A stretch of 64,000 nt of DNA from contig JAHFOO010000001.1 in the NCBI GenBank assembly GCA_023261645.1, forward strand, positions 3,871 to 67,870. The letters are read 5' to 3'. Every line of letters starts with the position of its first letter. Positions within the stretch are counted from its first letter, which is position 1. A model generated the notes under the pieces. That model saw only the letters and a list, made by a program, of their open reading frames with translations, was not told the origin of the DNA and searched no databases. Shown piece by piece: positions 4,546-32,152 of this stretch. The DNA is from Candidatus Moraniibacteriota bacterium (lineage in GTDB: Bacteria > Patescibacteriota > Minisyncoccia > Moranbacterales > UBA1568). The position numbers and the translations under genes were made by a program.

Positions 4546-4560
4546 TTTTTTGTTGACTGC

Positions 4561-6655: not shown

Positions 6656-6681
6656 TCGATTCCTCAAACAACAAGGAGTAT

Positions 6682-6954: not shown

Positions 6955-7003
6955 CCAAATGCAAACGCGTTTGGCTTTTTTTATTTTTTATGTACAAGAA
7001 TTT

Positions 7004-7657
7004 TTAGTGTACTTTCTTCGCTTCTTTGTTTTTTATATAATGCCGAACGATGAAGGATATTTTCTGATCATCGAGACGTTCTCGTTCTTGCTCGGTCAAC
7101 AGTTTTTCTGGGAAATATTGTACCGGAAATCGGAAGGAGATCATTTCTATATCTTCAAACGAAATTTTCCCTTTTCCTTTCAAAGAAACTTCTGCTGTTT
7201 CTTTTTTCGCATCCCATAGACTGGAATCTTTTTCCAGAGGTTGCAGTGAGGTGAGGTGGTCTCGTTTGAAAACGATGACGACTTTCACTATTGCTCCGAC
7301 TTCTTTCCCTGAAAATCCCTCTGCCATAGCAACGCGAAAGCCTTTCCTTGAGGCCATCTTGCACATGTTCGCTCTATCGCTATGGTTATCAATATCGATA
7401 TCCTGACCCGTTACCAGAGAGTCGATCACTTTCTGAAAGGACTCGCTTCGACACAAGAGGGATTGTTCCTGAAAAATATCTGAAACGGCATTCGCTTCAG
7501 CAAGATTGAGACCAGCGCTCTGCAAATCAGACTCGATGTCTTCAAAAACAGTACCAATCTCAGTCTTAGCCAGACTGAGATTCTTCAACATCCCACTCAG
7601 CCTCGCAGATTCTGTTTCCTTGTGAAAAGAAAAATCATTTCCTTCGAATGTATTCAT
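7004..7657 (-). CDS. Hypothetical protein
   Basis: 217-aa ORF, well delimited between the dksA-like gene and polA. No family recognised. Confidence 0.4.
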   Translation of the reverse strand: MNTFEGNDFSFHKETESARLSGMLKNLSLAKTEIGTVFEDIESDLQSAGLNLAEANAVSDIFQEQSLLCRSESFQKVIDSLVTGQDIDIDNHSDRANMCKMASRKGFRVAMAEGFSGKEVGAIVKVVIVFKRDHLTSLQPLEKDSSLWDAKKETAEVSLKGKGKISFEDIEMISFRFPVQYFPEKLLTEQERERLDDQKISFIVRHYIKNKEAKKVH

Positions 7658-7691
7658 AACGCTGTCACTAATATATCAAGTTTTCTCTCTT

Positions 7692-12846: not shown

Positions 12847-15800
12847 ATGCCAAACGTCATTCATAAAAATACATCTCTCCATTCCGAAAAGGATGAACAG
12901 TCCCAATCGATTCTGAAAAAAATGCGTGATGTTTCGATTGAAGAGCACGCCTCTCGTCTGGCGAATGAAAGCGGGCTCCCCTATGCCGATCTTCACGTCT
13001 TTCCACTCAGTACCGAAGATGTTATTCTCGTCCCAGAAACAGACGCAAAAAAATTCGGTCTTGTTCTCTTCAGTAAACAAAATACCTCGGCTCGATTCGC
13101 CATCCTTGATCCTGCTCGAACCGAGACACTGCAGTTCATAAAGAATTTTTCTGACGAGCACGGATGGCAGGGAGAGATATATGTCGTTTCACAATCATCA
13201 CTCGACCATGCTTGGAAAGCGTATTCCAAACGAACCTTCATTGATAATCTCGATCTCGTTCGTGTCTCTCTTGGAGATGCTGACTTGGAAAAATTCGAAA
13301 AAGATTTCAGCGAACTCATTTCGTTGAAAAGTATCCATACAGCCAATACCTCGCGGGCGATGGAAATCATCCTGGCTGGTGCGAGAAAGCTCCGTTCGAG
13401 TGATGTTCACCTCGAGCCAGCAGAAGATTTTGTCCGTCTCCGTTACCGTATCGATGGCGTTCTGCAAGAAATAGGCAATCTCCCATTGGAGCGATACCAT
13501 CTGATGCTTTCTCGTATCAAAATGATCGCAAAAATGCGACTGAATGTTCGAAAAGTGGCTCAAGACGGTCATTTTTTCGTAAACCTTGAGAATAGGCGTA
13601 TAGACGTCCGTGTCAGCAGTATTCCTGGTAAATTCGGTGAAAACATCAATATGCGCCTCCTCTCTGGAGATGATGTCATCGTCGATGTCACCGCTCTTGG
13701 TCTCCGTGGTCTCGCCTATGATGAAGTGACCAAACAAATCACCAAACCGAACGGCCTCATATTGAATACCGGACCGACCGGCTCCGGAAAAACGACGACA
13801 CTCTATACGCTTCTCAATCATATCAACCAGCCTGATATAAAAGTCATCACCATCGAAGACCCAATCGAGTATACGATTCCGGGTATCGTTCAGACAGAAG
13901 TTTCCAAAAATAAAGATTACACGTTTGCGACAGCCCTCCGAGCCGTTGTTCGTCAAGATCCCGATATCATCTTGGTCGGAGAAATCCGTGATGACGAGAC
14001 AGCTGACATCACCGTCAATGCCGCACTGACTGGGCACCTGGTATTTTCGACCGTACACGCCAACAGTGCTGCTGCTGCTATCCCTCGTTTTATGGAACTC
14101 GGGGTAAAGCCGTCTCTTCTTTCTGCCTCACTCAATGTACTCATCGGACAACGCTTGGTTCGTGTTCTGTGCGAGTACTGCAAAGAATCCTACGAGCCGG
14201 CACACGAAACCATCGAATCCATTTTAAAACTCATCACCATCATTTCTCCGAAAGCAAAAATTTCTCTGCCTCAAAAGGTGACAGTTCTTTACAAATCGGT
14301 TGGTTGTGCGAAATGTCATTTCACAGGCTACCACGGACGAATCGGTATTTTTGAGGTGCTGACAATGACGAAAGATGTGACGGAAATAATAAACAATATG
14401 GGTACCGAACAGGAGATTCTTCGAACCGCTCTGGAAAATGGGATGGTGACGATGACACAGGACGGTATACTCAAAGCGCTCGACGGAATAACGACACTTG
14501 ATGAAGTATGGAGAGTTGCAGATCAGACAGAATCGCTTCGCACTATTTATGCCGAACTCATGCCAAGCGAACTTTCCCGTTCCACGTATATCACCGAAGA
14601 GATTTTTGAAAATACAAAGAAAAAAGTCTCCTCTCTCAAAGAGTTCACCGAATACATAAACGCAATCAATTCTCGATTGCGCATCCCGACGCTTTTTGCG
14701 GGAGCTATTCTGATGAAGGCCGCAGATATCCACATCGAACCAACAGGTGATACGGTAGATGTCCGTTTCCGTATCGACGGTATCCTCCAGACAGCAGTGA
14801 CTTTTCCTCTTACCGACTATCCCGTCCTTGTCGCAGAAATCAAGCTTGCTGCCGGACTCAAGTCAGGCGAACGCTCTGGAACAATCGATGGACGCTTCTC
14901 TCTTACATTCGAGAAGGAACTTCCCGACAAGACGAAGAAGATAGATATTCGACTTTCTATCATTCTTGGTGGCTTTGGAGAAACAATCGTGATGCGACTC
15001 CTCAACCAATCCATCGTCAAACTCGATCTCGATTCGCTCCATATCCGCAAACAAAATCTCGAGAATATCTATACAGCTATCAGCAAACCGCATGGCGTCA
15101 TCCTGAACACCGGCCCGACCGGCTCCGGAAAAACGACGACACTTTATAGTATTCTCTCAAAGCTCAACACTCCAGAAGTGAAAATCATTACTGTCGAAGA
15201 TCCGATAGAATATCAGATCCCCGGCATCCTCCAGACACAGACCAAAGAGAGTGAAAATTATACGTTTGCGACCGCACTACGTTCTCTTGTGCGCCAGAAT
15301 CCGAATATTCTTATGATTGGAGAAATCCGTGATGATGAAACTGCAAAGATGGCTATCCAAGCAGCCAGTACCGGACACCTGGTCCTCTCAACGCTCCATA
15401 CCAATTCGGCTGCCGGTGTCATCTCTCGTCTGAATGCTATGGGTGTGAGCAATGATGACATCGCCAATACCGGGAATCTTTTTATGGCACAACGATTGGT
15501 CCGGAAAGTATGTGAGCACTGCAAAAAATTTCTGCCACCGACAGAAGCAGAGAAAGAAATCATCGAAAAAACACTCAGTTCGATGCCGTCATCAAAAGAA
15601 CAGGAGATGCTTCTAAAAAATATCACTCTCCCTCATACGAACGGTTGCCCTTTTTGTGGTGGTACAGGCTTCTCAGGACAACTGGCAATCACCGAAACAC
15701 TTCTCATAGACAAGGACATCTCAGCACTTATCGCACAGGGAGCTCTTACAGGCGAGATTGAAGAAAAGGCTATAGAACTCGGAATGATTACGCTGACCCA

Positions 15801-15870
15801 AGACGGTATCCTCTCCGTACTTGAAGGAGACACAACTCTCGATGAAGTACGACGCGTGACAGATTTGTAG
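12847..15870 (+). CDS. pilB: Tandem-duplicated (fused) type II/IV secretion ATPase of the PilB/GspE family
   Basis: Two complete ATPase modules in one 1007-aa ORF. Module 1 has GLILNTGPTGSGKTTTLY, ILVGEIRDDETA, TGHLVFSTVHAN and CEYC...CAKC. Module 2 has GVILNTGPTGSGKTTTLY, LMIGEIRDDETA, TGHLVLSTLHTN and CEHC...CPFC. An N-terminal GspE-N-like domain is present. No stop or frameshift separates the halves. Confidence 0.8.
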   Translation: MPNVIHKNTSLHSEKDEQSQSILKKMRDVSIEEHASRLANESGLPYADLHVFPLSTEDVILVPETDAKKFGLVLFSKQNTSARFAILDPARTETLQFIKNFSDEHGWQGEIYVVSQSSLDHAWKAYSKRTFIDNLDLVRVSLGDADLEKFEKDFSELISLKSIHTANTSRAMEIILAGARKLRSSDVHLEPAEDFVRLRYRIDGVLQEIGNLPLERYHLMLSRIKMIAKMRLNVRKVAQDGHFFVNLENRRIDVRVSSIPGKFGENINMRLLSGDDVIVDVTALGLRGLAYDEVTKQITKPNGLILNTGPTGSGKTTTLYTLLNHINQPDIKVITIEDPIEYTIPGIVQTEVSKNKDYTFATALRAVVRQDPDIILVGEIRDDETADITVNAALTGHLVFSTVHANSAAAAIPRFMELGVKPSLLSASLNVLIGQRLVRVLCEYCKESYEPAHETIESILKLITIISPKAKISLPQKVTVLYKSVGCAKCHFTGYHGRIGIFEVLTMTKDVTEIINNMGTEQEILRTALENGMVTMTQDGILKALDGITTLDEVWRVADQTESLRTIYAELMPSELSRSTYITEEIFENTKKKVSSLKEFTEYINAINSRLRIPTLFAGAILMKAADIHIEPTGDTVDVRFRIDGILQTAVTFPLTDYPVLVAEIKLAAGLKSGERSGTIDGRFSLTFEKELPDKTKKIDIRLSIILGGFGETIVMRLLNQSIVKLDLDSLHIRKQNLENIYTAISKPHGVILNTGPTGSGKTTTLYSILSKLNTPEVKIITVEDPIEYQIPGILQTQTKESENYTFATALRSLVRQNPNILMIGEIRDDETAKMAIQAASTGHLVLSTLHTNSAAGVISRLNAMGVSNDDIANTGNLFMAQRLVRKVCEHCKKFLPPTEAEKEIIEKTLSSMPSSKEQEMLLKNITLPHTNGCPFCGGTGFSGQLAITETLLIDKDISALIAQGALTGEIEEKAIELGMITLTQDGILSVLEGDTTLDEVRRVTDL

Positions 15871-19061: not shown

Positions 19062-19553
19062 ATGAGAATTCTCGGCATCGATCCTGGCACAGCAACGGTG
19101 GGCTGGGGGGTGATAGAAATACAGGGTAGCAAAACCACCACTGTAGCGTTCGGACATATAAGTACGAGCAAAGACCTGTCTCCCGAGAAACGATTGGCAG
19201 AAATATCAAGCGACCTCGAAGGCATCGTGAAGAAGTACCAACCGGAGGAAGCAGCCGTCGAAGAACTTTTCTTTTTCAAAAATCAAAAAACCATTATTTC
19301 GGTCGCACAGGCTCGCGGTGTTATTCTCTTGACTTTAGAGAATTTATGTGTTAATATTTCCGGTTATACGCCTCTTGAAGTGAAACAGGCATTGACAAAT
19401 TATGGTAGAGCAGACAAGACTCAGGTACAATTGATGGTGAAGACCATTCTCAAACTCAAAGAAATTCCCAAGCCTGATGACACCGCTGATGCTCTGGCTA
19501 TAGCGCTCTGCCATGCCAGTCGTCGTAAAATGGAGGCTGTAAGAAATTCCTAA
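19062..19553 (+). CDS. ruvC: Crossover junction endodeoxyribonuclease RuvC
   Basis: MRILGIDPGTATVGWGV and the RuvC catalytic layout. The track ORF starts upstream at a non-ATG codon. Confidence 0.85.
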   Translation: MRILGIDPGTATVGWGVIEIQGSKTTTVAFGHISTSKDLSPEKRLAEISSDLEGIVKKYQPEEAAVEELFFFKNQKTIISVAQARGVILLTLENLCVNISGYTPLEVKQALTNYGRADKTQVQLMVKTILKLKEIPKPDDTADALAIALCHASRRKMEAVRNS

Positions 19554-19564
19554 TGCCTAATATC

Positions 19565-19584
19565 CCTGCCTGCCGGCAGGCAAG
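19565..19584. repeat. GC-rich palindromic intergenic repeat, copy 4 (CCTGCCTGCCGGCAGGCAAG)
   Basis: Contains the 14-bp perfect palindrome GCCTGCCGGCAGGC. Lies 80 bp upstream of the 7TM gene. Confidence 0.5.
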
Positions 19585-19666
19585 TAATGCTTAATAAAAT
19601 TCACAATTTTTAAATTCAAGGGGTGAAAACCTTTTAGAAATTAGAAATTGATTATTAGAAATTCTT

Positions 19667-20323
19667 ATGTTGTATCATCCTCTTGTCATTTTTTTCATCG
19701 AACAGGGCGTACCGGTACAAACAGTCCTCCTTCTTTTGATGCTTCCTGTCGTGGCGACACTCGTCGCTTTTTTCCGTCAGGTCGTAGGCATCAAAGCCTT
19801 CGGTATCTATACGCCATCACTCATCACTTTTGCTCTGCTCGCTTTCGATCCGAATGGGTTGAAATATGGCATCACTATTTTTGTCAGTGTCATATTGGTC
19901 GGTATGGTAACACGTTTTATCCTCAATAGATTTCGCCTTCTTTATCTGCCTCGTGTCGCCATAACGCTTTCCATCGTCTCGCTTACCATTCTTCTTATTC
20001 TCGTCACTGGCGGGATGTATCAGCGTACTGGGCTGGCATCCGTGAGTATTTTTCCTCTCCTTATTATGATCACTCTCGCGGAAAAATTTGTTGCAACCCA
20101 AATCGAGAAAGGAAGTCGGGCCGCTTTCATTCTGGCAGCTGAAACACTTGTTATTTCCATCGTCGGATATTTTCTCGTCAGTTGGCAGACACTCACTGTT
20201 TTGATCCTTGAATACCCCTGGATCATACTCTTTACTTTCGTCATCAATTTTTCTTTGGGAAAATGGACAGGGTTACGCATCACGGAATATTTTCGTTTTC
20301 GAAAGATTGCTCGTCATCTCTAG
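19667..20323 (+). CDS. Polytopic (about 7-TM) membrane protein, first gene of the ATP-grasp module
   Basis: 218 aa, hydrophobic throughout, with six or seven predicted TM helices. Lies immediately upstream of two ATP-grasp genes, which recalls the 7TM partners of RimK-related ligases. Confidence 0.5.
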   Translation: MLYHPLVIFFIEQGVPVQTVLLLLMLPVVATLVAFFRQVVGIKAFGIYTPSLITFALLAFDPNGLKYGITIFVSVILVGMVTRFILNRFRLLYLPRVAITLSIVSLTILLILVTGGMYQRTGLASVSIFPLLIMITLAEKFVATQIEKGSRAAFILAAETLVISIVGYFLVSWQTLTVLILEYPWIILFTFVINFSLGKWTGLRITEYFRFRKIARHL

Positions 20324-20377
20324 ATTTTTTTTATTTAATGCGGTGAGATTCCTGACAGACTCTCCCCCTTCTCCGCT

Positions 20378-21796
20378 ATGTTCGAATTTTTCAAAAAAAG
20401 CCAGGGTTTCTTGGGTATGAATTCCCGGAACCTGGAGTATATCCGTCCGAACAACCGTAAGCGCGGAATGGAGATAGCGGACAGCAAGCTTCTCTGTAAG
20501 CGTATTCTGAAAAAAAATAACCTCGGCGTTTCCACTCTCATCGCGAAAATAAAAAACTATGAGGAACTCGATCAATTCGATTTTTCGACACTCCCCGACA
20601 GTTTCGCACTGAAACCGAATCGTGGTTTCGGTGGAGAAGGAATCATCGTCGTATACGCTCGAAAAAAACTCGCTCGCAATACTACGGACGAAAACAAGAA
20701 TAATGTGTGGATCAAAGCCAATGGATCAACCATCACAGCCGAAGATCTGAAAAGTCATATCCGCAATATCATCGATGGATCCTTTTCTCTTTCAAGCGTT
20801 CCTGATATCGCCTTTTTCGAAGAACGGCTGAAACTTCTCAAACTTTTCAAGCCCTACTCCTATAAAGGTATTCCTGATATCCGTATCATCATTTTCAACC
20901 GAGTGCCTGTTATGGCGATGCTCCGTCTGCCTACGCGTGCTTCTGATGGCAAGGCCAATCTCCAGCAGGGGGCGATCGGTGTCGGTATCGACCTCGCCAC
21001 AGGTACCACAACGACAGCTATTCTCGGTAAAGGCCATCTTATCGAATATATTCCCGGTACTCGACTTGCTCTTTCGGGAATCAAAATCCCCTACTGGAAG
21101 AATATTCTCCGTATGTCCATCGATGCTCAGTCGGTATCGCACCTCGGCTTTCTTGGAGCCGATATCGCCATCGACCGTGATCGAGGGCCGGTCATTCTCG
21201 AGCTCAATGCTCGCCCTGGCCTTTCCATCCAACTCGCGAACTCAAGCGGACTCAAAGAGCGCCTGAAGCGTATCTCGGGACTTAAGATAAAAACTACCGA
21301 ACGTGGTATGCGCGTCGGAATGAATCTTTTCGGCGGCGAGATCGAAGAAGAGATCGAAGAAATTTCAGGTAAACGCGTCATCGGCAGCGTAGAAAAAATC
21401 AAACTCATCGGCAAAGATGGCAGGGAAATCGAGGTCGAGGCGAAAATCGATACCGGTGCCGACTCAACCTCTATCGATATCGAACTTGCTAAACAATTGG
21501 GGTTCGGAGACGCTTTGAAAACATTTGAAGAAAAAGTGGGAGGAAGAGATGTTCTCACTGAACTTTCCAAGGAGGAACGCGAGAAACTCTTTTCTTCCAT
21601 TCCCGATCTTGCTGATACTGTTCCTATAAAATCTTCTCATGGGTATTCATATCGTCCGATCGTACTTACAACACTCATTATCGATTCCATTCCCATTCCG
21701 GCAAAAGTTTCTTGTATTGATCGTTCTCATCTCTCATACCCTGTTATCATAGGTCGTAAACATTTGAGAAAATTTCTCATCGATATCAATAAATAG
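20378..21796 (+). CDS. RimK-related ATP-grasp ligase fused to a C-terminal retropepsin-like (PF05618-type) aspartyl protease domain
   Basis: ATP-grasp blocks FALKPNRGFGGEGIIVV and ADIAIDRDRGPVILELNARPG. C-terminal EKIKLIGKDGREIEVEAKIDTGADSTSIDIELAKQLGF carries the DTGA aspartyl-protease motif. Confidence 0.7.
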   Translation: MFEFFKKSQGFLGMNSRNLEYIRPNNRKRGMEIADSKLLCKRILKKNNLGVSTLIAKIKNYEELDQFDFSTLPDSFALKPNRGFGGEGIIVVYARKKLARNTTDENKNNVWIKANGSTITAEDLKSHIRNIIDGSFSLSSVPDIAFFEERLKLLKLFKPYSYKGIPDIRIIIFNRVPVMAMLRLPTRASDGKANLQQGAIGVGIDLATGTTTTAILGKGHLIEYIPGTRLALSGIKIPYWKNILRMSIDAQSVSHLGFLGADIAIDRDRGPVILELNARPGLSIQLANSSGLKERLKRISGLKIKTTERGMRVGMNLFGGEIEEEIEEISGKRVIGSVEKIKLIGKDGREIEVEAKIDTGADSTSIDIELAKQLGFGDALKTFEEKVGGRDVLTELSKEEREKLFSSIPDLADTVPIKSSHGYSYRPIVLTTLIIDSIPIPAKVSCIDRSHLSYPVIIGRKHLRKFLIDINK

Positions 21797-21856
21797 CGCT
21801 TTCTCGATATTTTTTCCTTATGAAGCTTCATTATAATTTTCTTAACCATAAAAAAT

Positions 21857-22852
21857 ATGCCATTGAAAGATTATATCAAGAACATCAAGCACGGCGGTTT
21901 CAAATCTTTTTTGAAAAAAGCTGTAGAGCTTGGCGTACAAATAGAAATGATTGAAGAGGGGGGATCTCCTATTCTGAAGCTGCACTATCAAGGTAAATCT
22001 ATTTTTTGTTATAAAAGAAATCTGCCTATCTATAAAAGAATGGGTAATCTTACAAAAAACAAAGAGGTAACAAAAACGATTCTCACCGCCTCAGACATAC
22101 AGACACCAAAAGGGATCACAGCCACCTCTCTTCAAGAAGCCTTGAAACTTGTCCGGGAGAGAAAATTAAAATATCCACTCATCTGTAAACCTGTCGACGG
22201 ATCTTTAGCAAAAGGGATGACGTGGGATATCGCTTCCCCCCAAGAACTTCGTGTGGCTATCGTCTATGCAAAAAATGCCTATGGTCGACGCCCGCGGTCG
22301 AGATTTCTGGTCGAAGAAATGTTTGTTGCGAACGAATATCGTGTCTTGGTATTCAATGGTAAGGTACTTTCCTGTGTACAAAAGATTTCTGCAGGAATCA
22401 CCGGTGACGGCGTTTCTTCCATAGAAGAGTTGATTGCTCATTTCAACAGTAAACGATTGTCTGGTTTTGAAATCAAGCTCGATAAAATCGCAAAAGAAAC
22501 TCTCAAGCTACATTCTCTCTCTCTTCAATCCATTCTTCCAAAAAACCACTTCTTCAAACTACGAAACAATCTCAATATGTCTGATGGGGGGAGATCAATC
22601 GAATGTACAAAAAAGATGCATCCTTATTTCAAAGATATTTGTGTGCGTGCCGCTGAGGCTGTAGGACTTACTTATGGAGGGATCGATTTTTTTGCAAAAG
22701 ACATCACTTCCAAGAAGAGCGAGTATGTTATTCTCGAAATAAACCCCAATCCGTTCTACAATATGCATGAAAAACCACTCGTGGAAGGAAAGGGCGTCGA
22801 TGTCTCAAGTGAGATTCTTAGAAGTATTTTCCCTCGATTAAGTAAAAAATAA
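21857..22852 (+). CDS. Stand-alone ATP-grasp protein resembling the N-terminal domain of cyanophycin synthetase
   Basis: LICKPVDGSLAKGM, ITGDGVSSIEELIAHFNSKRLSGFEIKLDKI (compare the CphA GDGxSTIxELI region) and YVILEINPNP. No Mur-ligase domain is present. Confidence 0.6.
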   Translation: MPLKDYIKNIKHGGFKSFLKKAVELGVQIEMIEEGGSPILKLHYQGKSIFCYKRNLPIYKRMGNLTKNKEVTKTILTASDIQTPKGITATSLQEALKLVRERKLKYPLICKPVDGSLAKGMTWDIASPQELRVAIVYAKNAYGRRPRSRFLVEEMFVANEYRVLVFNGKVLSCVQKISAGITGDGVSSIEELIAHFNSKRLSGFEIKLDKIAKETLKLHSLSLQSILPKNHFFKLRNNLNMSDGGRSIECTKKMHPYFKDICVRAAEAVGLTYGGIDFFAKDITSKKSEYVILEINPNPFYNMHEKPLVEGKGVDVSSEILRSIFPRLSKK

Positions 22853-22919
22853 AGACTTTTAAACCTTCTCTTTTTGTTCATTTCGTGCTATACAATAAAG
22901 ATACGTATCATATATTGTT

Positions 22920-25481
22920 ATGGCATTTTTTCACAAAAGGCGACAAATTCCTGGCTTAACTAAGCCACGATGGAGATATTGGCCGATTCTTTGGAAAACG
23001 GCACTTATTTCCTTTATCTTACTTGTCCTTCTTGCTATCGGCACATTTGCCTATATTGCCAAAGACCTTCCGAACCCAGGAATGATCAATCAGCGTGTCA
23101 TCGTCGAATCGACCAAGATCTATGATCGAACTGGTACTCACCTCCTCTATGATGTACATGGTGAAGAAAAACGCACGGTCATCGCTTTTTCTGATATGCC
23201 CGATGTCATCAAATATGCCACTATCAGCCTTGAGGATCAGGATTTTTATAACCACTATGGAATAAAAATTTCCTCTATTCTCCGTTCGATATTTAAAGAT
23301 GTTACTCAGCTCGGTAAGGCCCAGGGAGGATCGACTATTACACAACAATTTGTCAAAAATTCCCTGCTCACCAATGAAAAAACACTGCTTCGTAAGGTCA
23401 AAGAGGTTATTCTTTCCCTTGAAATAGAAACGAAGTTTTCCAAAGACGAGATCCTTGCTATGTATTTAAATGAAATACCTTACGGATCAAACGCTTATGG
23501 TATCGAGGCCGCATCTCAGACTTTTTTTGGAAAACCTGCTCGTGAACTGACGCTCGATGAGGCCGCTCTCATCGCATCACTCCCCCAAGCTACTGCATAC
23601 TATTCGCCCTATGGTTCACACACGGATGCTCTCATCGGGCGGAAAGATTTTGCTCTCAAGACGATGGCGCGTCTCGGATATATCACAGAAGAACAGGCGA
23701 CAGAAGCCATAAATACCAACACTCTTGACAAGATACAACCACAGAAGGATATCATTGCGGCCCCGCATTTCGTTATGTATATCAAAGACTATCTCCAGCA
23801 AAAATATGGTGACCAGGCCGTCGAACAAAGCGGTTACAAAGTGATTACCACTCTTGATTGGGACAAGCAACAGGTTGCTGAACAGGCAGTACGTGAAGGT
23901 TCTCTTAATAACAAAAAATGGAAGGCTGCTAATGCCGCTCTTGTGGCAATGGATCCTAAAACGGGACAGATTCTCGCTTTGGTCGGCTCAAAAGACTATT
24001 TTGGCGCTTCAGAACCGGCCGGCTGTATTTCTGGAAAAACCTGTGTTTTCGAGCCAAATTTTGATGTGGCTATCGCACAAAGACAGCCTGGGTCTTCTTT
24101 CAAACCATACGTGTATTTAGCAGCCTTCACGAAAGGGTATCTTCCTGAAACCATTCTTTATGATACAAAAACTCAGTTTGAAACAGCGGAGGGAAAGAGT
24201 TATGAACCAAACAATTATGATGGAAAATTCCACGGACCACTTCCAATGATGAAAACTCTTGGTGGGTCCCTTAATATCCCTGCGGTTAAAACACTCTATC
24301 TTGTCGGTGTGAATAATGCTATTTCACTCGCAAAAAATCTCGGTATCACCGGCCTCAATGATCCTTCTCGGCTCGGGCTCTCTCTCGTCTTGGGCGGTGG
24401 CGAAGTAAAACTCCTCGATCATGTCAGTGCTTATAGTACTCTTGCTACCGGCGGTATCAAACATAAACAAACAGCCATTCTTCGTATTGAAGATGCGAAA
24501 GGAAACATACTTGAAGAATTCAAACCGGATGCTGGTGAACGCGTGGTAGAGGAAAAATACGTCGCTATGCTTGATTCTATTCTCTCAAACAATGATAATA
24601 GAGCGTGGGTGTTTGGTGATAATTCCCCTCTGCGTTTTGATAATCGTCCTGTCGTTGCAAAAACAGGCACTACCAACGAATTCCGTGATGGATGGACCAT
24701 CGGCTATACTCCATCTCTCGCTGTCGGCGTATGGGCCGGAAATAATAACAATGCACCTATGGTGACCGGTTCGGATGGTGTCAATGTAGCTGCTCCGATC
24801 TGGCGTGCTTTCCTCGATCAATCACTCACAAACTATGCCATTGAAGATTTTCCGAAGTATACTCCTGATGATGAAATAGGCGATGGGGATGGAAAAACGA
24901 ATAAACCGATGCTTGCAGGCAAGCTCGAAACGGAAAAAAACCTGAAGGTTTGTAGTATTCCTGGAGACAAAGGGAATTATTGTCTCGCAAATAAATATTG
25001 TCCTGATAATGAATCTGATAAAAAGGATTTTGTAAGCACTCATGATATCTTATACTACGTAAACCGTGATGACCCACGAGGGCCTATTCCAGACAAACCG
25101 GAAAATGATCCTCAATACAAAAATTGGGAGAAGGGTGTAGAAGAGTGGTATAAAAATCAGAAAGACTCCACACATGGCTCTCCTCCTACGGATGAGTGTA
25201 AGGAAAGCGATTTCAAAAAATTTCAGCCGAGTATTAGTCTTACAACCGCAGGAAGTTCATCCTCCTCATCTATAACTCTGAGTGCAAATGTAAATGCTCC
25301 TTATGGCGTGGATTCTGTCACTTATTTGGTAGATGGCTCAGAAGTAGGCTCGACATCTTCAAATCCTTATTCGATTAATTATACTGTTTCTACTCCTTCT
25401 ACTATAACCATAGAGGTTGAAATGAAAGATAAAAACGGTAATACCGCACATGATAGTAAACATATGAGTGTTAGTTTTTAA
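22920..25481 (+). CDS. ponA: Class A penicillin-binding protein (bifunctional transglycosylase/transpeptidase)
   Basis: TM anchor and GT51 motifs (EDQDFYNHYGI, GGSTITQQ), then a transpeptidase region and a Ser-rich linker with a C-terminal beta-domain. 853 aa. Confidence 0.85.
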   Translation: MAFFHKRRQIPGLTKPRWRYWPILWKTALISFILLVLLAIGTFAYIAKDLPNPGMINQRVIVESTKIYDRTGTHLLYDVHGEEKRTVIAFSDMPDVIKYATISLEDQDFYNHYGIKISSILRSIFKDVTQLGKAQGGSTITQQFVKNSLLTNEKTLLRKVKEVILSLEIETKFSKDEILAMYLNEIPYGSNAYGIEAASQTFFGKPARELTLDEAALIASLPQATAYYSPYGSHTDALIGRKDFALKTMARLGYITEEQATEAINTNTLDKIQPQKDIIAAPHFVMYIKDYLQQKYGDQAVEQSGYKVITTLDWDKQQVAEQAVREGSLNNKKWKAANAALVAMDPKTGQILALVGSKDYFGASEPAGCISGKTCVFEPNFDVAIAQRQPGSSFKPYVYLAAFTKGYLPETILYDTKTQFETAEGKSYEPNNYDGKFHGPLPMMKTLGGSLNIPAVKTLYLVGVNNAISLAKNLGITGLNDPSRLGLSLVLGGGEVKLLDHVSAYSTLATGGIKHKQTAILRIEDAKGNILEEFKPDAGERVVEEKYVAMLDSILSNNDNRAWVFGDNSPLRFDNRPVVAKTGTTNEFRDGWTIGYTPSLAVGVWAGNNNNAPMVTGSDGVNVAAPIWRAFLDQSLTNYAIEDFPKYTPDDEIGDGDGKTNKPMLAGKLETEKNLKVCSIPGDKGNYCLANKYCPDNESDKKDFVSTHDILYYVNRDDPRGPIPDKPENDPQYKNWEKGVEEWYKNQKDSTHGSPPTDECKESDFKKFQPSISLTTAGSSSSSSITLSANVNAPYGVDSVTYLVDGSEVGSTSSNPYSINYTVSTPSTITIEVEMKDKNGNTAHDSKHMSVSF

Positions 25482-25503
25482 TATTTTATGTTTTTATTTT
25501 AAA

Positions 25504-25530
25504 AATCCCCGTAAAGTACGGGGATTTTTT
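25504..25530. terminator. Bidirectional rho-independent terminator between convergent ponA and dciA-like genes
   Basis: ATCCCCGTA / TACGGGGAT stem flanked by an A-run and a T-run. Confidence 0.5.
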
Positions 25531-25899: not shown

Positions 25900-27051
25900 C
25901 TATTTTCTTATTGGCATCATAATATAAAGATAATTTTCCGTAAGAGTAGTATTTTCCTTATTTTGTATACGAAGTGCTGCAGGAGTAACTCCATCATTGG
26001 CTAAAAAGAGTATTTTTTCACTTACGAGAGCGTTTATTCCTTCTAAGACATAACGTGGATTAAAAACAATAGTAAGTGGTTCTGTACCTTGTTGTATTTC
26101 TATCGGTAATACGGTCTTATTTTCCCCTATTTCCTGCGATGCTGATGATATGGTACATATTTTTTCTTCTGGTTGAAAAAGAAGTGTTATTTCACCTGAA
26201 TTATATGAAGAAAAACTACTAGCTATTTTTACCGCTCTCTGAAAAGATTCTTTTTCTAAAATAACCTGAAGAGAGAAGCTTTTTGGAATTATTTGTTTAT
26301 AATCTGGGTATTTTCCATTTATAATCCTTGATACGATCTGTACACCATCTATTTCAAAAAATATCTGATTTTCTTTTAAAGCTATCTTTATATCCCTGCT
26401 TTCAGGCGTGATAATATGAATAATTTCATGTAACGTATTCCCAGGAATGATAAGTGATGGGTTTTGAGAAAGGAAATCATTATATCCACTTCCTTGATTT
26501 GTAAAAGGAATTATTTCTTCAGCAAGACGAAAACTGTCTGTGGTAGCAATTTCTATCATATCCTTATAAAAGAAAATATGTACGCCGGTAAGTTCAAGAC
26601 GTGCATTATTCAAACTAATACAGAATAAAAGCCGAGAAAGAGCTGTTTTAAGTTCTTGTGCTGGGAAAGAAAAGAAATATTCTTCTTTATATTCAGGAAT
26701 AATAGGAAAATCCTTCCCATCTAATCCTTTAATTTTTATTTGATAAGAAGTGCTTATTATTTTTAATCCTTCATTATCACTCTCTAATTCGAGAATATCT
26801 CCTAAAGGGAGATTATGTATAAAATTACTTAAAAGTTTTGCTGGTACAGCTATTTTTCCTTCTTTTTCTATTTTTGCTCCTATAGAGGTAATTATTCCTA
26901 TTTCCAAGTTTGTTGCAGAAATTTTTAACCTTCCATTTTCTGTTTCTATTAAGAAATTACTGAGAATAGGAAGAGTTGCTTGTTTTCCTGCTATTTTTTC
27001 CAAATAAGAAATGGCTCGATTAAGGTTTTCTTGTGTACAGATGAGTTTCAT
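25900..27051 (-). CDS. dnaN: DNA polymerase III beta sliding clamp
   Basis: MKLICTQENLNRAISYLEKIAGKQATLPILSNFLIE. 383 aa. Immediately downstream of dnaA. Confidence 0.9.
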   Translation of the reverse strand: MKLICTQENLNRAISYLEKIAGKQATLPILSNFLIETENGRLKISATNLEIGIITSIGAKIEKEGKIAVPAKLLSNFIHNLPLGDILELESDNEGLKIISTSYQIKIKGLDGKDFPIIPEYKEEYFFSFPAQELKTALSRLLFCISLNNARLELTGVHIFFYKDMIEIATTDSFRLAEEIIPFTNQGSGYNDFLSQNPSLIIPGNTLHEIIHIITPESRDIKIALKENQIFFEIDGVQIVSRIINGKYPDYKQIIPKSFSLQVILEKESFQRAVKIASSFSSYNSGEITLLFQPEEKICTISSASQEIGENKTVLPIEIQQGTEPLTIVFNPRYVLEGINALVSEKILFLANDGVTPAALRIQNKENTTLTENYLYIMMPIRK

Positions 27052-27312
27052 AAGACTATATATTAATAGTTTCTTTTAAATTATATTATAAAAACTTCTT
27101 ATTATCATTAGGGGTGTGAATATCTGGATAAGTCATAATAATGCTTTATAAAAGGTATTATTTTTAAGAATATAGAAATGTAATATAAAAGAAAAGTAAC
27201 AAAAGAATATTTTTTCAAAAATAATTAAAGAAGAATCATTTTTTATCCACAAAATTTCTTCTCTTATACAAACACTTTACACGACTTTTAGTGAGTTATA
27301 CAAGATTATACA
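27052..27312. other. Putative oriC / DNA-unwinding region (dnaA-dnaN intergenic)
   Basis: 260-bp region, extremely AT-rich, with a perfect DnaA box TTATCCACA at 27243-27251 and a one-mismatch box (TCTGGATAAG) near 27160. Confidence 0.5.
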
Positions 27313-28728
27313 TCAAACTGGATAATAAAGACGCTCTTTAAGAACATTTAACTCTTCTTTCAGGCGTGGATGAGAGTCTTTATTTTTATTTATTTTTTCA
27401 AATGCGTGTAGAGCAGTCGTATGATCTCTTCCTCCAAAAATATCACCGATGGTTGAAAATGGAGTTTGGAGTTCAGTACGAAGAATATACATCATTACCT
27501 GGCGTGGATGAGAAATTTCCTTTTTTCTTCCTTTTTTTATAATATCTTCTTTGGTAATATTATAAAATTCAGTAATAACACGAAAAATATCATCAACTTG
27601 AAGTGTCTTTTTATTATTTTCAATAAGTTGAGAAAGTATTTTCCCTGTATTTTCCAGTGTAGGTGAAATTTTATGAAATTCACAGAAAGCGATGACTCGA
27701 TTGAGAGCTCCTTCAAGTTCACGGATATTTTGAGTGATATTTTCGGCGATAAAACGTATAGCAGGAGTGTCTATAATAAAGCTTTTTTCAGCAATTTTTG
27801 ATTCCAAAATAGCCACTCTTGTTTCAAAGTTTGGACGACTAATATCAGTGATCATACCACCTTCAAAACGTGAACGGAGACGCTCTTCAAGGGTGGGGAT
27901 GGCTTTTGGTGGTCGGTCACTTGATATGACAATTTGTTTATTGAGTTGATAGAGTGAGTTGAAAATATGGAAAAATTCGTTCTGGGTCTTTTCTCTCCCG
28001 GAAAGGAATTGAATATCATCAATAATAAGAAGATCCATCTGTTGATAATATTCTTTAAATTTATCTATTTTCTGATTTTTAATGGAATCTACGAGTTCCG
28101 TCGTAAAACGTTCTGAGTTGATGTATTTAATTCTTTTTTCAGGTGAATTCTTCACCACCTCATTTCCAATAGACTGAAGCAGATGAGTTTTTCCCAACCC
28201 AACACCCCCATAAATAAAAAGAGGGTTATAAGCCATACCGAGATTTTGTGAAACCGCATAGCAAGCTGCACGTGCAAGATCGTTATTTTCTGCAACGATG
28301 AAGTTCTCAAATGTGTATCGATTATTAAGGTTGGTTTCATGAAAAAGAGGAGTGGATGGACCTGATTCAGTAAAAAATGGTTTTTCAATCAGTTTCTTTC
28401 GGACAAATCCTGTGGTCTCAGGTGATTTTATAGCATCTATATTTTTAAGAGAATCTACGGTTGGCAGAGAAGAAGTGAATTTTTCAGGTGCAATAACACA
28501 GCGGATGGTTTGGATATCACCATTAATACCTTTAAGAGCACGTAAAATATAGAGATTATACTTGTTTTCAAGCCATTCTTTTGCAAAACCATTTGGTACA
28601 CCAATGGTTATAATTCCATCTTGATTACTAACAATACTCGTGTTTTTAAACCACGTAATAAAATTAGCACGAGAAATAGAGAGCTCCATTTGTCCTAAAA
28701 CAGCCTTCCATAACTCCTCGTTTGTCAT
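27313..28728 (-). CDS. dnaA: Chromosomal replication initiator DnaA
   Basis: GGVGLGKTHLLQSIGNE Walker A, the AAA+ sensor and a C-terminal DNA-binding domain. 471 aa. Confidence 0.9.
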   Translation of the reverse strand: MTNEELWKAVLGQMELSISRANFITWFKNTSIVSNQDGIITIGVPNGFAKEWLENKYNLYILRALKGINGDIQTIRCVIAPEKFTSSLPTVDSLKNIDAIKSPETTGFVRKKLIEKPFFTESGPSTPLFHETNLNNRYTFENFIVAENNDLARAACYAVSQNLGMAYNPLFIYGGVGLGKTHLLQSIGNEVVKNSPEKRIKYINSERFTTELVDSIKNQKIDKFKEYYQQMDLLIIDDIQFLSGREKTQNEFFHIFNSLYQLNKQIVISSDRPPKAIPTLEERLRSRFEGGMITDISRPNFETRVAILESKIAEKSFIIDTPAIRFIAENITQNIRELEGALNRVIAFCEFHKISPTLENTGKILSQLIENNKKTLQVDDIFRVITEFYNITKEDIIKKGRKKEISHPRQVMMYILRTELQTPFSTIGDIFGGRDHTTALHAFEKINKNKDSHPRLKEELNVLKERLYYPV

Positions 28729-28926
28729 AAAATAAAGCTATTATCAGAGAGTATAAAAACATCAAATGGAATTATATCACGGCTGTACGGGTCGGCATAG
28801 GGTGAAAAAGTGTGTGAAGTGTGGATAAGCGGTGTATAACAAGAGAAAAGGCTCCATCATTGACTTTCTTTCTTTTTCTGGTAGACTGGAAAAACATCCA
28901 ATGACTTAAAATCTAATGTTTATTAT
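28729..28926. promoter_or_regulatory. dnaA upstream region with DnaA box (second oriC half / dnaA autoregulation site)
   Basis: Perfect box TGTGGATAA at 28820-28828, between divergent dnaA and rpmH. Confidence 0.4.
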
Positions 28927-29067
28927 ATGCCAAAAAGAACCTATCAACCAAAAACCCTCAAACGTGCCAGACGACACGGTTTTCTCGAGAGAATGAATAC
29001 TGTCGGGGGAAGAAAAGTAGTGGCAAATCGTCGTAGAGATGGAAGAAAAAAATTGACGGTAGCGTAG
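28927..29067 (+). CDS. rpmH: 50S ribosomal protein L34
   Basis: Not in the track (46 aa). Translation [46 protein letters not shown] is canonical L34. Confidence 0.85.
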
Positions 29068-29070
29068 GAT

Positions 29071-29418
29071 ATGTTGAAAAAAGGCTTTCGTTTGCGAAAA
29101 AAAGAGGATTTTGATAGAGTCTTTCGCTTCGGTAAGCCTCTTTTTTTTGGAGAAGAAATTGGCTGTCGATATTTACTTGATGCTCCGTCGATACGATTAG
29201 GATTTTCTCTTGGTAAAAAATATCTTCCTTTGGCTACTGATCGGAACAGATTTCGAAGAATATTTTCTGAAGTGTTTTATAATCATCAAGAAGAGTGGCC
29301 AAAATCGGGAGATATACTCTTTTTCCTTGTAAAAAGGCCAAAAAAGGTGGATACTAAACAAACAGAGAAAATGATGCAAAATCTTTTTCAAACCATAAAC
29401 AAAAATCGTAAAGTATAA
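29071..29418 (+). CDS. rnpA: RNase P protein component
   Basis: Basic 115-aa protein, LRKKEDFDRVFRFGK...RNRFRR, immediately after rpmH. Confidence 0.8.
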   Translation: MLKKGFRLRKKEDFDRVFRFGKPLFFGEEIGCRYLLDAPSIRLGFSLGKKYLPLATDRNRFRRIFSEVFYNHQEEWPKSGDILFFLVKRPKKVDTKQTEKMMQNLFQTINKNRKV

Positions 29419-29424
29419 AACAAT

Positions 29425-30156
29425 ATGATGCATATCTTTGATATTTCTATCTACCAACCGCTCTATAATGCCCTTATATTCTTTTATAATGTCGTTCCAG
29501 GGTATGATTTCGGTGTGGCTATTATACTCACAACGCTTGTTCTGAAGTCCCTCTTGATACCTCTTTCCAAGAAGCAGATAGAATCGCAGAAAAAGATGCA
29601 GGAATTACAGCCACAAATCAAGGAACTGCAACAAAAACACAAAAATGATAAAGAGAAACAAACAAAGGCGTTGATGGAATTTTATAAAGAGCATAAAACA
29701 AACCCATTTTCCGGATGCCTCCCGCTTATTATCCAACTTGTATTTCTTATTGCCATCTATCGAGTGATTATTAATATATCTCGGGCTGGTTTTGTGGTTA
29801 ATCCAAGCGATTTATATGCATTCATACCTGATCCGGGCGAGATCAATCACCTTTTTCTTCATTTTATAGACTTGACGAAACCAAACTATGTTTTAGCGTT
29901 CTTTTCTGCTATTGCTCAGTATTTTCAAACAAAGATGCTTTTCCAGAACCAAAGTAAGACTGAAACTAAAAACACCCCTTCCTCCGAACCCGACTTTGCG
30001 ACTATAATGAATAAGCAGATGCTCTATTTGGGTCCAGGACTGACATTCTTTATCGGAGCGACATTCCCGGCCGCCTTGGCTCTCTACTGGCTCTTCTCGA
30101 CACTGTTTATGCTTTTTCAGCAGATGGTTATCTTTAAACCGAAACAAGAGAAATAA
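29425..30156 (+). CDS. yidC: Membrane protein insertase YidC (short form)
   Basis: GCLPLIIQLVFLIAIYRVI and a C-terminal basic tail. The order rnpA-yidC-jag is conserved. Confidence 0.85.
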   Translation: MMHIFDISIYQPLYNALIFFYNVVPGYDFGVAIILTTLVLKSLLIPLSKKQIESQKKMQELQPQIKELQQKHKNDKEKQTKALMEFYKEHKTNPFSGCLPLIIQLVFLIAIYRVIINISRAGFVVNPSDLYAFIPDPGEINHLFLHFIDLTKPNYVLAFFSAIAQYFQTKMLFQNQSKTETKNTPSSEPDFATIMNKQMLYLGPGLTFFIGATFPAALALYWLFSTLFMLFQQMVIFKPKQEK

Positions 30157-30159
30157 CGT

Positions 30160-30639
30160 ATGGACAAGACATACCAAAAAATTATCAAAGAAACTGTTCT
30201 CGAGTTGTTACAAAAGCTCGGTTTTGAAGCTTCCGTTGAAGTGATAGAAGAACAAGGAACTTCGAATATTTTTTTCTGTATGGCTCGCGTAGAGAAAGAT
30301 CAAAATTTTCTTATCGGTCAGTATGGGACGAATCTTGCCGCTGTCCAGCATCTCGTCCGTGTGATGCTTCGCAAGAAGATAGAAGAAAGAGTGAATATCG
30401 TGGTAGATGTGAATGATTATTTTCTTGAAAAAAAGGTGATACTCGAAAAAGAAGCGGAAAAAGTAGCCTTTGAAGTTTTGGAAAACAATATTTCTGTCGC
30501 TCTCCGCCCGATGCTTCCATACGAACGCAAGATAGTACACTCCTTTCTTGCAAAAAATCCGGATATCAGTACCGAGAGTATAGGAAAAGGTGAGGAAAGA
30601 AAAGTAATGATCAGCCCGAAAAGCAAAGAAAGTGAATAG
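30160..30639 (+). CDS. khpB: Jag/KhpB-family RNA-binding protein (KH + R3H)
   Basis: An R3H-like segment (ERKIVHSFLAKNPDISTESIGKGEERKV) at the C-terminus. Conserved position after yidC. Confidence 0.75.
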   Translation: MDKTYQKIIKETVLELLQKLGFEASVEVIEEQGTSNIFFCMARVEKDQNFLIGQYGTNLAAVQHLVRVMLRKKIEERVNIVVDVNDYFLEKKVILEKEAEKVAFEVLENNISVALRPMLPYERKIVHSFLAKNPDISTESIGKGEERKVMISPKSKESE

Positions 30640-30685
30640 GAAGTCTTGTTTGAGGGGTTTTTACAATGAAGTAAAATGAAAAGCA

Positions 30686-32152
30686 ATGGCTCTCGCACAT
30701 AAAATTGCTTATAACGTTGTTTTCAATTCTTTTTTGAAAGTATTTTCAACGGTAGCCCTTTCTCTCTATTCGATTCGTTTGATTACCGGATATCTTGGAC
30801 AGGATGGTTTTGGCAAGTATTCGACCGTACTCGCCTTTTTCGCCTTTTTCTCCGCTTTGGCTGATTTGGGACTGAGTTCAGTAACAGCTCGTGAGATTTC
30901 TCGTGAAGGAGCTGACGAAAGCAAGATTTTAAGCAAGGTTCTCTCCTTACGACTGACATCCTCCTTTGTTGTTTTCTTACTGGCACCATTTTTGGTAATA
31001 TTTTTTGATTATCCGCTTGACCTGAAAATCGGTATTTTCATTGCTGCCGGAGCGATTCTCTTTTCCACGCTTTCATTGATGCTGAACGGTATTTTTCAGA
31101 AACGTGTGGCGATGGACAAAGTCGCTCTGGTAGAATTTCTTGGAAAACTTTTTCAGGTAGGTATAGTCATCCTTGTTGTAAGAGAAAATCTTGGTTTTCT
31201 CGCTATCGTTTCAACTCTCCTGGCATCACTTTCTTTCAACGCCCTCGTCGTTTTTTTTCTGAGCCGACGTTTCGTCCAATTTTCTCCAAAGATTGACTAT
31301 GCTTATTGGAAGAAATTTCTCCATGAGTCTCTGCCGATGGGTGTTACTGCCATCATCACCTTTACCTATTTCAAAATGGATACCATCCTTCTTTCCATCC
31401 TCCAAACGAGTTCTCATGTGGGTATCTACAATGTCGCCTATAAAGTTATGGAGAATCTTATCTTTTTCCCAGCGATGCTTGCCGGGCTGATTCTCCCACT
31501 TCTTTCACGATTTATTTACACCAACCGAAAACACTTTGAAGATATCGCCAACAAGACATTCAAAGTTTTTGTCATCATTGTCGTACCAATCGTAGCCGGC
31601 ACATGGTTTTTATCTGGAGACATCATTCGTATTGTGAGTGGAGATGCTTTCCTTGAATCCGCCCCCGTTCTGAGAATTCTTATTTTTGCGCTGGGCTTTA
31701 TTTTCTTTGGAAACTTCTTCAATATGTTACTTGTAGTCGGTAACGCTCAAAAAAAGCTTATGCAGACGCTTTTTTTCGTCGCCATCTTCAATCTTCTTTT
31801 GAATGCTTTTCTCATTCCACGTTTTTCCTACACAGGAGCAGCTTTTGCCTCGCTTGCGACAGAGATGTTTGTTGTCATAGCGACGAGCTTCCTTGTCTAT
31901 AAATATATCCACTATATCCCTTCTTTCGAAAGTGTCGGAAAGATTCTTCTCTCCGGAACAGTGATGGGCGTTATTCTTTTCTTTCTTTCCCCACACTCAT
32001 TTTTTCTTTCCGGCATAGGCGGAGTCGGTGCATATATTGGGATGTTGTGGTTGACGAAAGCGATCAGTTCGGAGGAAATTACGAGCCTTTTCCAGAAAGA
32101 GGAAGAAGTCCTTTTTTCTCCTGTTGAACCCATAGAAACACTGAATCCATAG
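30686..32152 (+). CDS. Wzx/PST-family polysaccharide flippase
   Basis: 488 aa, about 12-14 TM helices. GKYSTVLAFFAFFSALADLGLSSVTAREISR is a PST-family motif. Confidence 0.7.
   Translation: MALAHKIAYNVVFNSFLKVFSTVALSLYSIRLITGYLGQDGFGKYSTVLAFFAFFSALADLGLSSVTAREISREGADESKILSKVLSLRLTSSFVVFLLAPFLVIFFDYPLDLKIGIFIAAGAILFSTLSLMLNGIFQKRVAMDKVALVEFLGKLFQVGIVILVVRENLGFLAIVSTLLASLSFNALVVFFLSRRFVQFSPKIDYAYWKKFLHESLPMGVTAIITFTYFKMDTILLSILQTSSHVGIYNVAYKVMENLIFFPAMLAGLILPLLSRFIYTNRKHFEDIANKTFKVFVIIVVPIVAGTWFLSGDIIRIVSGDAFLESAPVLRILIFALGFIFFGNFFNMLLVVGNAQKKLMQTLFFVAIFNLLLNAFLIPRFSYTGAAFASLATEMFVVIATSFLVYKYIHYIPSFESVGKILLSGTVMGVILFFLSPHSFFLSGIGGVGAYIGMLWLTKAISSEEITSLFQKEEEVLFSPVEPIETLNP

Follow-up and report, generated by a model that had tools for sequence, protein, structure and literature searches.

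A seven-transmembrane protein, a ligase-retropepsin fusion and an exchangeable ATP-grasp ligase: a putative minimal Rlo-type module of Candidatus Moranbacteria

The window analysed here, i.e. the whole stretch of 64,000 nucleotides (nt) of contig JAHFOO010000001.1, comes from a reduced-genome bacterium of the candidate phyla radiation (CPR), Candidatus Moranbacteria. It contains a module of three genes encoding a membrane protein with seven transmembrane helices (7TM; gene 1), an ATP-grasp ligase fused to a retropepsin-like aspartyl protease (gene 2) and a stand-alone ATP-grasp ligase (gene 3). Judged by their sequences, genes 1 and 2 appear to be a condensed form of RloB, RloC and RloA in which the protease is cytoplasmic. 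The explanation that we favour, if tentatively, is that the locus is a CPR ligase-peptidase system of the Rlo/Rim type, which would synthesize an acidic peptide independently of the ribosome and trim it at the cytoplasmic face of the 7TM protein, the product being probably envelope-bound. A preliminary description of this DNA, made from the sequence alone, had placed three co-directional, closely spaced genes at this site in a minimal-genome host and had proposed an as yet uncharacterised system in which amino-acid ligases go together with a 7TM protein. All three open reading frames (ORFs) are present at the coordinates given there, separated by 54 and 60 nt, and both the nature of the host, whose closest named relatives all belong to Candidatus Moranbacteria/Moraniibacteriota, and the general idea hold.

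The rloABC operon was named in P. aeruginosa and P. fluorescens by Lormand et al. 2025 (mBio, PMC12239564). RloA proteins are retropepsins that are secreted and cut runs of eight or more Glu residues. In P. aeruginosa RloA the catalytic D48, together with R114 and R137, is needed for polyglutamate cleavage and for complementation of the mutant, and the substitutions R114A and R137A abolish cleavage. Loss of all three RloA proteases leads to hypo-osmotic lethality and to defects in shape, biofilm and antibiotic sensitivity, and in P. aeruginosa these defects are suppressed by deletion of rloB or rloC. Of the RloB matches in that study, 96% were proteobacterial (PMC12239564).

The same three families occur in both operons, i.e. 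7TM_transglut (RloB), an ATPgrasp_ST-type ligase (RloC; P. aeruginosa RloC presumably belongs to PF14397) and a DTGA retropepsin with two substrate-binding arginines (RloA). However, the periplasmic inactive transglutaminase domain of RloB is absent from gene 1, and RloA is a separate, secreted protein (with a signal peptide and a conserved disulfide pair), whereas here the retropepsin lies C-terminally on the ligase and is predicted to be cytoplasmic. In addition, the CPR module has gained at least one further ATP-grasp ligase, and its hosts are CPR bacteria as opposed to mainly proteobacteria. The preliminary description did not name Rlo and took the S6-modifying RimK system as its reference, which was the wrong comparison.

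In profile searches gene 1 matched the Pfam family 7TM_transglut (PF14402, E = 1.2e-28), as expected from its earlier designation as a protein of about seven transmembrane helices, and also the RloB model NF052267 (E = 6.4e-23; positions 312-506 of 508 only). No match to the inactive transglutaminase domain PF14400, the periplasmic ectodomain of RloB, was obtained in the same search. As the alignment is confined to the last 195 positions of the RloB model, gene 1 is predicted to be the membrane half of RloB minus the transglutaminase ectodomain. Its AlphaFold2 (AF2) model consists of seven transmembrane helices and a C-terminal helix (predicted local distance difference test score, pLDDT, 70.5). 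Hydropathy and the positive-inside rule predict an outer N-terminus and an inner C-terminus. Invariant residues are concentrated in the C-terminal helix and in the loops facing the cytoplasm, the conserved motifs being RQvvGiKaFGiYtP, LLYLPR, AEKFvatQiEKG and GKWTGLR..EY.RF. The pair E159-T160 is invariant inside the sixth transmembrane helix, and N194 is a further invariant intramembrane polar residue. A Foldseek search of the gene 1 model against the PDB returned nothing significant (best E = 0.65). The C-terminal tail of the protein was also considered as a possible acceptor and rejected, its extreme C-terminus being basic and not conserved.

The N-terminal part of gene 2 matches ATPgrasp_ST (PF14397, E = 5.3e-66) and TIGR02291 (E = 9e-82), the latter with 274.6 bits, which is under the equivalog cutoff of 314.2 bits. 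By comparison, the RimK-family model TIGR00768 reaches 31.2 bits against a cutoff of 143.4, and the PF08443 match spans 39 residues only. The ligase is thus best placed, on profile scores, in the ATPgrasp_ST/TIGR02291 family and not in RimK; the earlier label 'RimK-type' has to be dropped, while the relation of the module to ATP-grasp ligases and retropepsins is borne out by the profile searches. The ATP-grasp residues K79, E148, R150, D167, R169, N194, D262, E275, N277 and R279 are invariant or nearly so in an alignment of 38 sequences. In the predicted structure of the fusion (AF2, pLDDT 89), the ATP-grasp fold is followed by two linker helices and then by a beta-rich retropepsin domain, in which a helical insert takes the flap position. 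In a Foldseek search the ligase part came closest to the CphA1 G domain, ArgX/LysX and RimK.

Free-standing ligases of ~315 amino acids (aa), which are ~42% identical to the gene 2 ligase domain (e.g. P0222), sit in canonical rloABC-type operons. Locus L060 provides an example, in which the ATPgrasp_ST ligase is encoded together with a RimB-like protein (210 aa) and a Transglut_i_TM + 7TM_transglut protein (502 aa). At this locus (2853-8592) two further genes follow the operon on the same strand, one for an AstE/AspA-type deacylase and one for an MscS-type mechanosensitive channel; the channel gene is suggestive in view of the osmotic phenotype that Rlo mutants display.

The C-terminal part of gene 2 was assigned to PF05618 (Zn_protease, now 'RimB-like'; E = 1.2e-8, 35.4 bits against a gathering cutoff of 27), so that the DTGA-bearing retropepsin of the preliminary description stands. 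The DTGA motif comprises residues 358-361 (window 21449-21460), and the catalytic D358 is nearly invariant. The domain aligns to three solved bacterial retropepsin-like structures (9g58, 9g59 and 2pma), with which it shares the motifs AK(I/L/M)DTGA (D358), RP (R426, window 21653-21655) and (D/N)R...YP..(I/L/M)G (R449, window 21722-21724). The two arginines are 23 residues apart, i.e. at the same spacing as R114 and R137 of RloA, and we infer that they correspond to this polyglutamate-binding pair. In a set of 99 representative homologues, each 400 aa or longer, the DTG motif and the two arginines are retained or lost jointly. The protease looks active and glutamate-directed, as far as can be judged from these residues. 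It has no signal peptide and a single cysteine (C446), hence no disulfide pair. As it is fused to a cytoplasmic ligase and devoid of a signal peptide, it is predicted to be cytoplasmic and of the RimB-like type rather than of the secreted, disulfide-stapled RloA type.

The ligase and the protease are joined by an acidic helix, LFGGEIEEEIEEISGKR, which is kept down to ~45% overall identity and is helical in the AF2 model. Its acid-rich form is enriched in homologues with an active protease. Autoprocessing at this linker, which bears EIEEEIEE just before the protease, was considered. This idea is weakened by the requirement of RloA for at least eight contiguous Glu residues, interruptions of which abrogate cleavage, as well as by the persistence of the helix pattern in homologues with a dead protease.

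An exhaustive profile search for the ligase-retropepsin family (E<=1e-30) yielded 414 clusters at 50% identity. Named members of the 440-520 aa form come from Jacksonbacteria, Patescibacteria and Moranbacteria. A numerous class of ~790 aa combines the ATPgrasp_ST ligase with a degenerate retropepsin, in which DTG and both arginines are lost, and a C-terminal MATCAP/DUF1704 metallopeptidase; it was found at L053 (3474-5876), at L057 (4990-7377) and in ~50 representative clusters (P0130-P0220), with a PKD-PKD-7TM protein as its neighbour. As the MATCAP-type enzyme is fused where the retropepsin is degenerate, some peptidase always accompanies the ligase. Rarer architectures include a second ATP-grasp domain or a YdjC domain. 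The 7TM partner of other CPR lineages possesses N-terminal PKD domains (L053, L057 and L059), whereas no N-terminal domain was detected in L058. Furthermore, L053 encodes three stand-alone CphA-G-like ligases and an extra MATCAP protein, and at L059 the fusion is followed by a GNAT gene. The pairing of an ATP-grasp ligase with a MATCAP carboxypeptidase recalls that of the tubulin tyrosine ligase and detyrosinase. No paper pairing MATCAP with ATP-grasp enzymes in bacteria was found in the literature available to us.

The fusion of a ligase and a protease, pointed out in the preliminary description, is real, yet neither rare (see above) nor new, as a retropepsin-ATP-grasp fusion has been described as RimBK (PMC11957791). 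RimB cuts poly-Glu both at its end and internally, and in its presence RimK makes more poly-alpha-Glu; both enzymes act on the tails of ribosomal protein S6. RimBK hybrids (RimB N-terminal, RimK C-terminal) are present in 12% of the rim-bearing genomes, and an active hybrid exists (PMC11957791). Like gene 2, the hybrid of Desulfotalea psychrophila (DP2392) joins a cytoplasmic ATP-grasp ligase and a RimB-type retropepsin, thus placing the writer and the eraser on a single polypeptide. The order of domains is the opposite (the protease is N-terminal there and C-terminal here), the ligase families differ, with gene 2 falling short of TIGR00768, and Rim systems have no 7TM partner, whereas here this partner is obligate.

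This comparison raises the possibility that the module acts on an intracellular protein, in a RimK/RimB-like manner: a poly-Glu or mixed tail would be added to the C-terminus of S6 or of another cytoplasmic protein and removed by the retropepsin, with the 7TM protein serving as an anchor or a regulatory sensor. Such a role would fit the cytoplasmic, ligase-fused protease, as in RimBK hybrids, and the action of RimB and RimK on S6 tails, and the MATCAP-type carboxypeptidases of the sister clusters recall the tubulin tyrosination/detyrosination cycle. However, the ligase lies outside the RimK family, and nothing in Rim systems corresponds to the obligate 7TM partner. In the homologous system of Pseudomonas the ligase resides in the cytoplasm and the protease in the periplasm, an arrangement that a purely cytoplasmic protein target cannot explain. 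Moreover, neither an S6 gene (rpsF) nor a Glu-rich ORF was found within the window, and the extreme C-terminus of gene 1 is not acidic. We therefore regard protein tailing as unlikely.

The distribution of the module was surveyed in one genome per GTDB species, which gave 52 loci, 48 of them including the sequence upstream of gene 2. In all of these 48 loci gene 1 lies directly upstream of gene 2 on the same strand, and the two genes often overlap or are 1-4 nt apart. The pairing spans Moranbacteria, Paceibacteria, Parcubacteria and Jacksonbacteria. At the 23 syntenic loci of Moranbacteria, genes 1 and 2 show a median identity of 69% to their counterparts in the window, compared with 70% for RuvC, 76% for RuvB, 64% for PBP1A (a class A penicillin-binding protein) and DnaN, and 58% for YebC. 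Genes 1 and 2 are therefore conserved at the level of housekeeping genes such as ruvC. The expected co-conservation of three genes was found for this pair and not for gene 3, an orthologue of which (49% identity or more) is located behind gene 2 in just 11 of the 52 loci.

Elsewhere the slot between gene 2 and the PBP1A gene is occupied by one to four other ATP-grasp genes, which are either RimK-family-like (often in tandem, sometimes fused to DUF3541) or distantly CphA-G-like. Some slots also contain MATCAP/QEGLA-type metallopeptidases, GT4 glycosyltransferases or unknown genes. The content varies even where the gene 2 proteins are ~80% identical to that of the window, as in L001, with two RimK-like genes, and L004, with an orthologue of gene 3. 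As the slot content differs among the loci while genes 1 and 2 stay adjacent, the module consists of a fixed two-gene core and a variable ligase cassette, in which gene 3 is accessory and exchangeable.

Gene 3 matches the cyanophycin synthetase model TIGR02068 (E = 3.9e-56) with 190.6 bits against a cutoff of 850, and only at positions 210-474 of 862; in the CphA1 structure 7lg5 the match (E = 1.5e-32) covers residues 216-481. Nothing was aligned outside the G domain, and there is no Mur-ligase part, in agreement with the original view of gene 3 as a stand-alone CphA-like ATP-grasp protein. The protein also aligns over its full length to the ATP-grasp half of GshF (3ln6), and its profile matches include GshF (E = 3.5e-46) and N-acetylglutaminylglutamine synthetase (E = 3.4e-32), every family score being far under the cutoff. 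In common with the CphA1 G domain, CphA2 and GshF (7lg5, 8fxh and 3ln6), it has the ATP-grasp core, a helical insertion with the (I/V)TGDG..(S/T)I.ELI block (here ITGDGVSSIEELI, residues 181-193) and all catalytic residues, with K111, E160, R162, D277, E294 and N296 conserved. It differs from these enzymes in the absence of the N domain, the Mur-ligase-like M domain and the glutamate-cysteine ligase (GCL) domain. Enzymes of the CphA/GshF type lengthen the carboxylate of a peptide or an amino acid by another amino acid.

The relationship of gene 3 to GshF, N-acetylglutaminylglutamine synthetase and the CphA G domain could also mean that the product is a small soluble di- or oligopeptide metabolite or a storage polymer used within the cell, which the protease would recycle. 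Candidates are an osmolyte similar to N-acetylglutaminylglutamine amide, a thiol resembling glutathione, and a reserve of poly-Glu or of a cyanophycin-like polymer. The GNAT gene of L059 (see above), the link of Rlo to osmotic tolerance and the MscS channel gene behind the canonical rlo-type operon are in line with such a product. Nevertheless, gene 3 does not reach the cutoff of any of these families, is dispensable or replaceable across genomes and has none of the partner domains (GCL, GNAT or a Mur-like M domain), and the obligate 7TM partner would be left unexplained. We give this possibility little credence.

A different role is suggested by the genes around the module. Directly downstream of gene 3, after a gap of 67 nt, lies the PBP1A gene, and the only strong terminator is situated 3' of it, with none separating it from genes 1-3; as this is the sole strong terminator, co-transcription of the module with PBP1A is possible. 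The ligases could add amino acids to a lipid-linked precursor of peptidoglycan or of a polysaccharide, with the 7TM protein binding or flipping the intermediate and the peptidases editing it. The ATP-grasp D-aspartate ligase of enterococci is an example of an enzyme adding an amino acid to a cross-bridge or side chain. Decoration of the cell wall or a surface glycan would agree with the conserved position upstream of PBP1A, with the GT4 glycosyltransferases of some cassettes, with the name of the ligase family, and with the cell-shape, beta-lactam and hypo-osmotic phenotypes of Rlo mutants; the change of cassette between genomes with gene 2 proteins ~80% identical to that of the window (e.g. 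L001 and L004) is also what surface structures often display. On the other hand, synteny with PBP1A is limited to the Moranbacteria, in whose loci its downstream position is conserved; PBP1A is separated in L057 and lacking in the loci of Paceibacteria and Jacksonbacteria. The features of the retropepsin are those of a polyglutamate endopeptidase and not of a muropeptide peptidase, and the module contains no Mur, Fem or lipid-carrier genes. Glycan decoration thus seems rather improbable to us.

We return to the envelope-directed acidic peptide as the preferred product. This proposal builds on the domain identities, the intact catalytic residues of both ligases and of the retropepsin, the obligate linkage of genes 1 and 2 and the variability of gene 3. 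The gene 2 ligase would dock onto the 7TM protein at its highly conserved cytoplasmic side and, using ATP, would join amino acids singly, most likely acidic ones (Glu/Asp), to a carboxylate acceptor, giving an alpha-linked acidic peptide made without ribosomes. In a presumed division of labour, gene 3, as a CphA-G-like member of a clade extending peptide C-termini, may contribute a second specificity (priming, extension or capping), a role which other ATP-grasp ligases would take elsewhere. The fused retropepsin, as a homodimer, would trim or release the chain, and the 7TM partner would probably pass or present the product to the envelope. Such export is suggested because the ligase is always cytoplasmic, while the peptidase is periplasmic in Proteobacteria but cytoplasmic here, and because the 7TM partners of other CPR lineages bear extracellular PKD domains and the 7TM protein contains invariant polar residues within the membrane (E159/T160 and N194).

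Several points weigh against this proposal. No product or acceptor has been established for any member of the system, including Pseudomonas Rlo, and the sequences do not disclose which amino acids the two ligases use. A fused cytoplasmic protease is equally compatible with an intracellular target. The equation of R426/R449 with R114/R137 rests on alignments to solved structures of the RloA type and on spacing. The gene 1 model is moderately confident and without a significant match among solved structures, so that a role in transport is unsupported by the fold. Finally, the ligase family is labelled 'sugar-transfer associated' in Pfam, and the ligase-retropepsin fusion is annotated in databases as 'sugar-transfer associated ATP-grasp'; together with the GT4 genes of some related loci, this label hints at a glycan acceptor rather than a free peptide acceptor.

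Two further candidates were rejected. The intergenic gaps (54-113 nt) are too short for a precursor ORF, which excludes a system for ribosomally synthesized and post-translationally modified peptides such as graspetides; the graspetide (MdnB/C-type) model TIGR04185 reaches only E = 0.0066. An anti-phage defence system was dismissed as well, since none of the three proteins matched a PADLOC defence model at E<=0.01.

Neighbourhoods combining ATP-grasp, 7TM/inactive-transglutaminase and aspartyl peptidase genes were reportedly predicted by Iyer, Abhiman, Burroughs and Aravind in 2009 (Mol Biosyst 5:1636). The families PF14397, PF14402 and PF05618 are said to have been defined from that comparative-genomics work, which is also said to have predicted a role in peptide or amino-acid ligation at the cell surface. 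In the literature available to us, no paper mentioning PF14397, PF14402 or TIGR02291 was found. What appears to be new here is the 7TM-only partner, the ligase-then-protease order of the fusion, the housekeeping-level conservation in reduced genomes and the exchangeable ligase cassette.

The features of the locus are collected in Table 1. The module is preceded by ruvB, a gene for a bPH_2 membrane protein, yebC and ruvC, and is followed by the class A PBP gene and then by dnaN and dnaA on the opposite strand. A 100% identical copy of the gene 2 protein is encoded on a 295-kb metagenomic contig. An Rfam search of 19400-23000 revealed no riboswitch or other RNA element at E<=1.

Table 1. Features of the three-gene module and its downstream flank (window coordinates)
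Feature	Position	Strand	Description
Gene 1	19667-20323	+	218 aa; RloB-type 7TM membrane protein, no ectodomain
Gene 2	20378-21796	+	472 aa; predicted N-terminal RloC-type ATP-grasp ligase and C-terminal RimB/RloA-type retropepsin
Gene 2, ATP-grasp (ATPgrasp_ST) domain	20426-21277	+	residues 17-300; PF14397
Gene 2, acidic helix LFGGEIEEEIEEISGKR	21326-21376	+	residues 317-333, between the ligase and protease domains
Gene 2, retropepsin domain	21374-21796	+	residues 333-472; PF05618 match at residues 335-471
Gene 3	21857-22852	+	331 aa; stand-alone ATP-grasp ligase of the CphA-G-domain / GshF / N-acetylglutaminylglutamine synthetase (Ngg) clade
Class A PBP (PBP1A)	22920-25481	+	directly downstream of gene 3
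Strong intrinsic terminator	25501-25529		after PBP1A

The palindromic repeat noted earlier upstream of the module is real, and consists of a perfect 16-nt palindrome, TGCCTGCCGGCAGGCA, at 19567-19582, after the ruvC stop codon. Near copies with 1 and 3 mismatches are found at 2200-2215 and 3347-3362, and the window contains 4 matches against 0.08 expected by chance. In the related loci that were inspected, no such palindrome precedes the orthologues; it is therefore not part of the module, and the idea that it regulates the module was rejected. It may belong to a small family of intergenic palindromic elements. A different repeat, three units of TTAGAAAT(T), occupies 19634-19665, directly 5' of the gene 1 start codon. 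Differing short repeats are found at the same position in orthologous loci, i.e. 'agctaa' (L004/L006/L023), 'tgaaaat' (L012/L024), three units of 'aaaactta' (L037) and 'attcataattca' (L005/L011/L042), and the motif of L045 is the same as that of the window.

The region beyond the PBP1A gene (25900-30700) has the appearance of a replication-origin neighbourhood, with dnaN and dnaA on the minus strand and rpmH, rnpA, yidC and an R3H/jag-like gene on the plus strand. GC content dips to 0.31 at 26-28 kb, and the minimum of the cumulative GC skew lies at 24-26 kb. Two other segments, 44001-46000 and 50001-52000, are low in GC (0.33 and 0.38, respectively, vs ~0.44 elsewhere). At 12847-15870 the window encodes a protein of 1007 aa in which T2SSE (a PilB/GspE-type ATPase) is matched twice and MshEN weakly, i.e. 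an unusually long, apparently duplicated secretion/pilus ATPase.

The CPR form would constitute a natural minimal version of Rlo, without an ectodomain and with the ligase and the protease on one chain. Its conservation at the housekeeping level in genomes of about one megabase argues for the importance of the product in basic envelope or cell physiology. As the extra ligases vary and a MATCAP-like peptidase replaces the retropepsin in sister lineages, this product would be a peptide that is built stepwise and edited, and the small three-gene module offers a convenient route to finding it. A broader proposal, which in our opinion has a small chance of being correct, is that many CPR bacteria use a conserved 7TM-ligase-peptidase engine with a rapidly exchanging ATP-grasp cassette (including MATCAP-like carboxypeptidases in some) to assemble lineage-specific, ribosome-independent peptide polymers of the envelope. 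If true, such polymers would play the part of teichoic acids or O-antigens in peptide form, needing only amino acids and ATP, in organisms thought to have very limited biosynthetic capacity, and the same chemistry would identify the product of RloBC in Pseudomonas.

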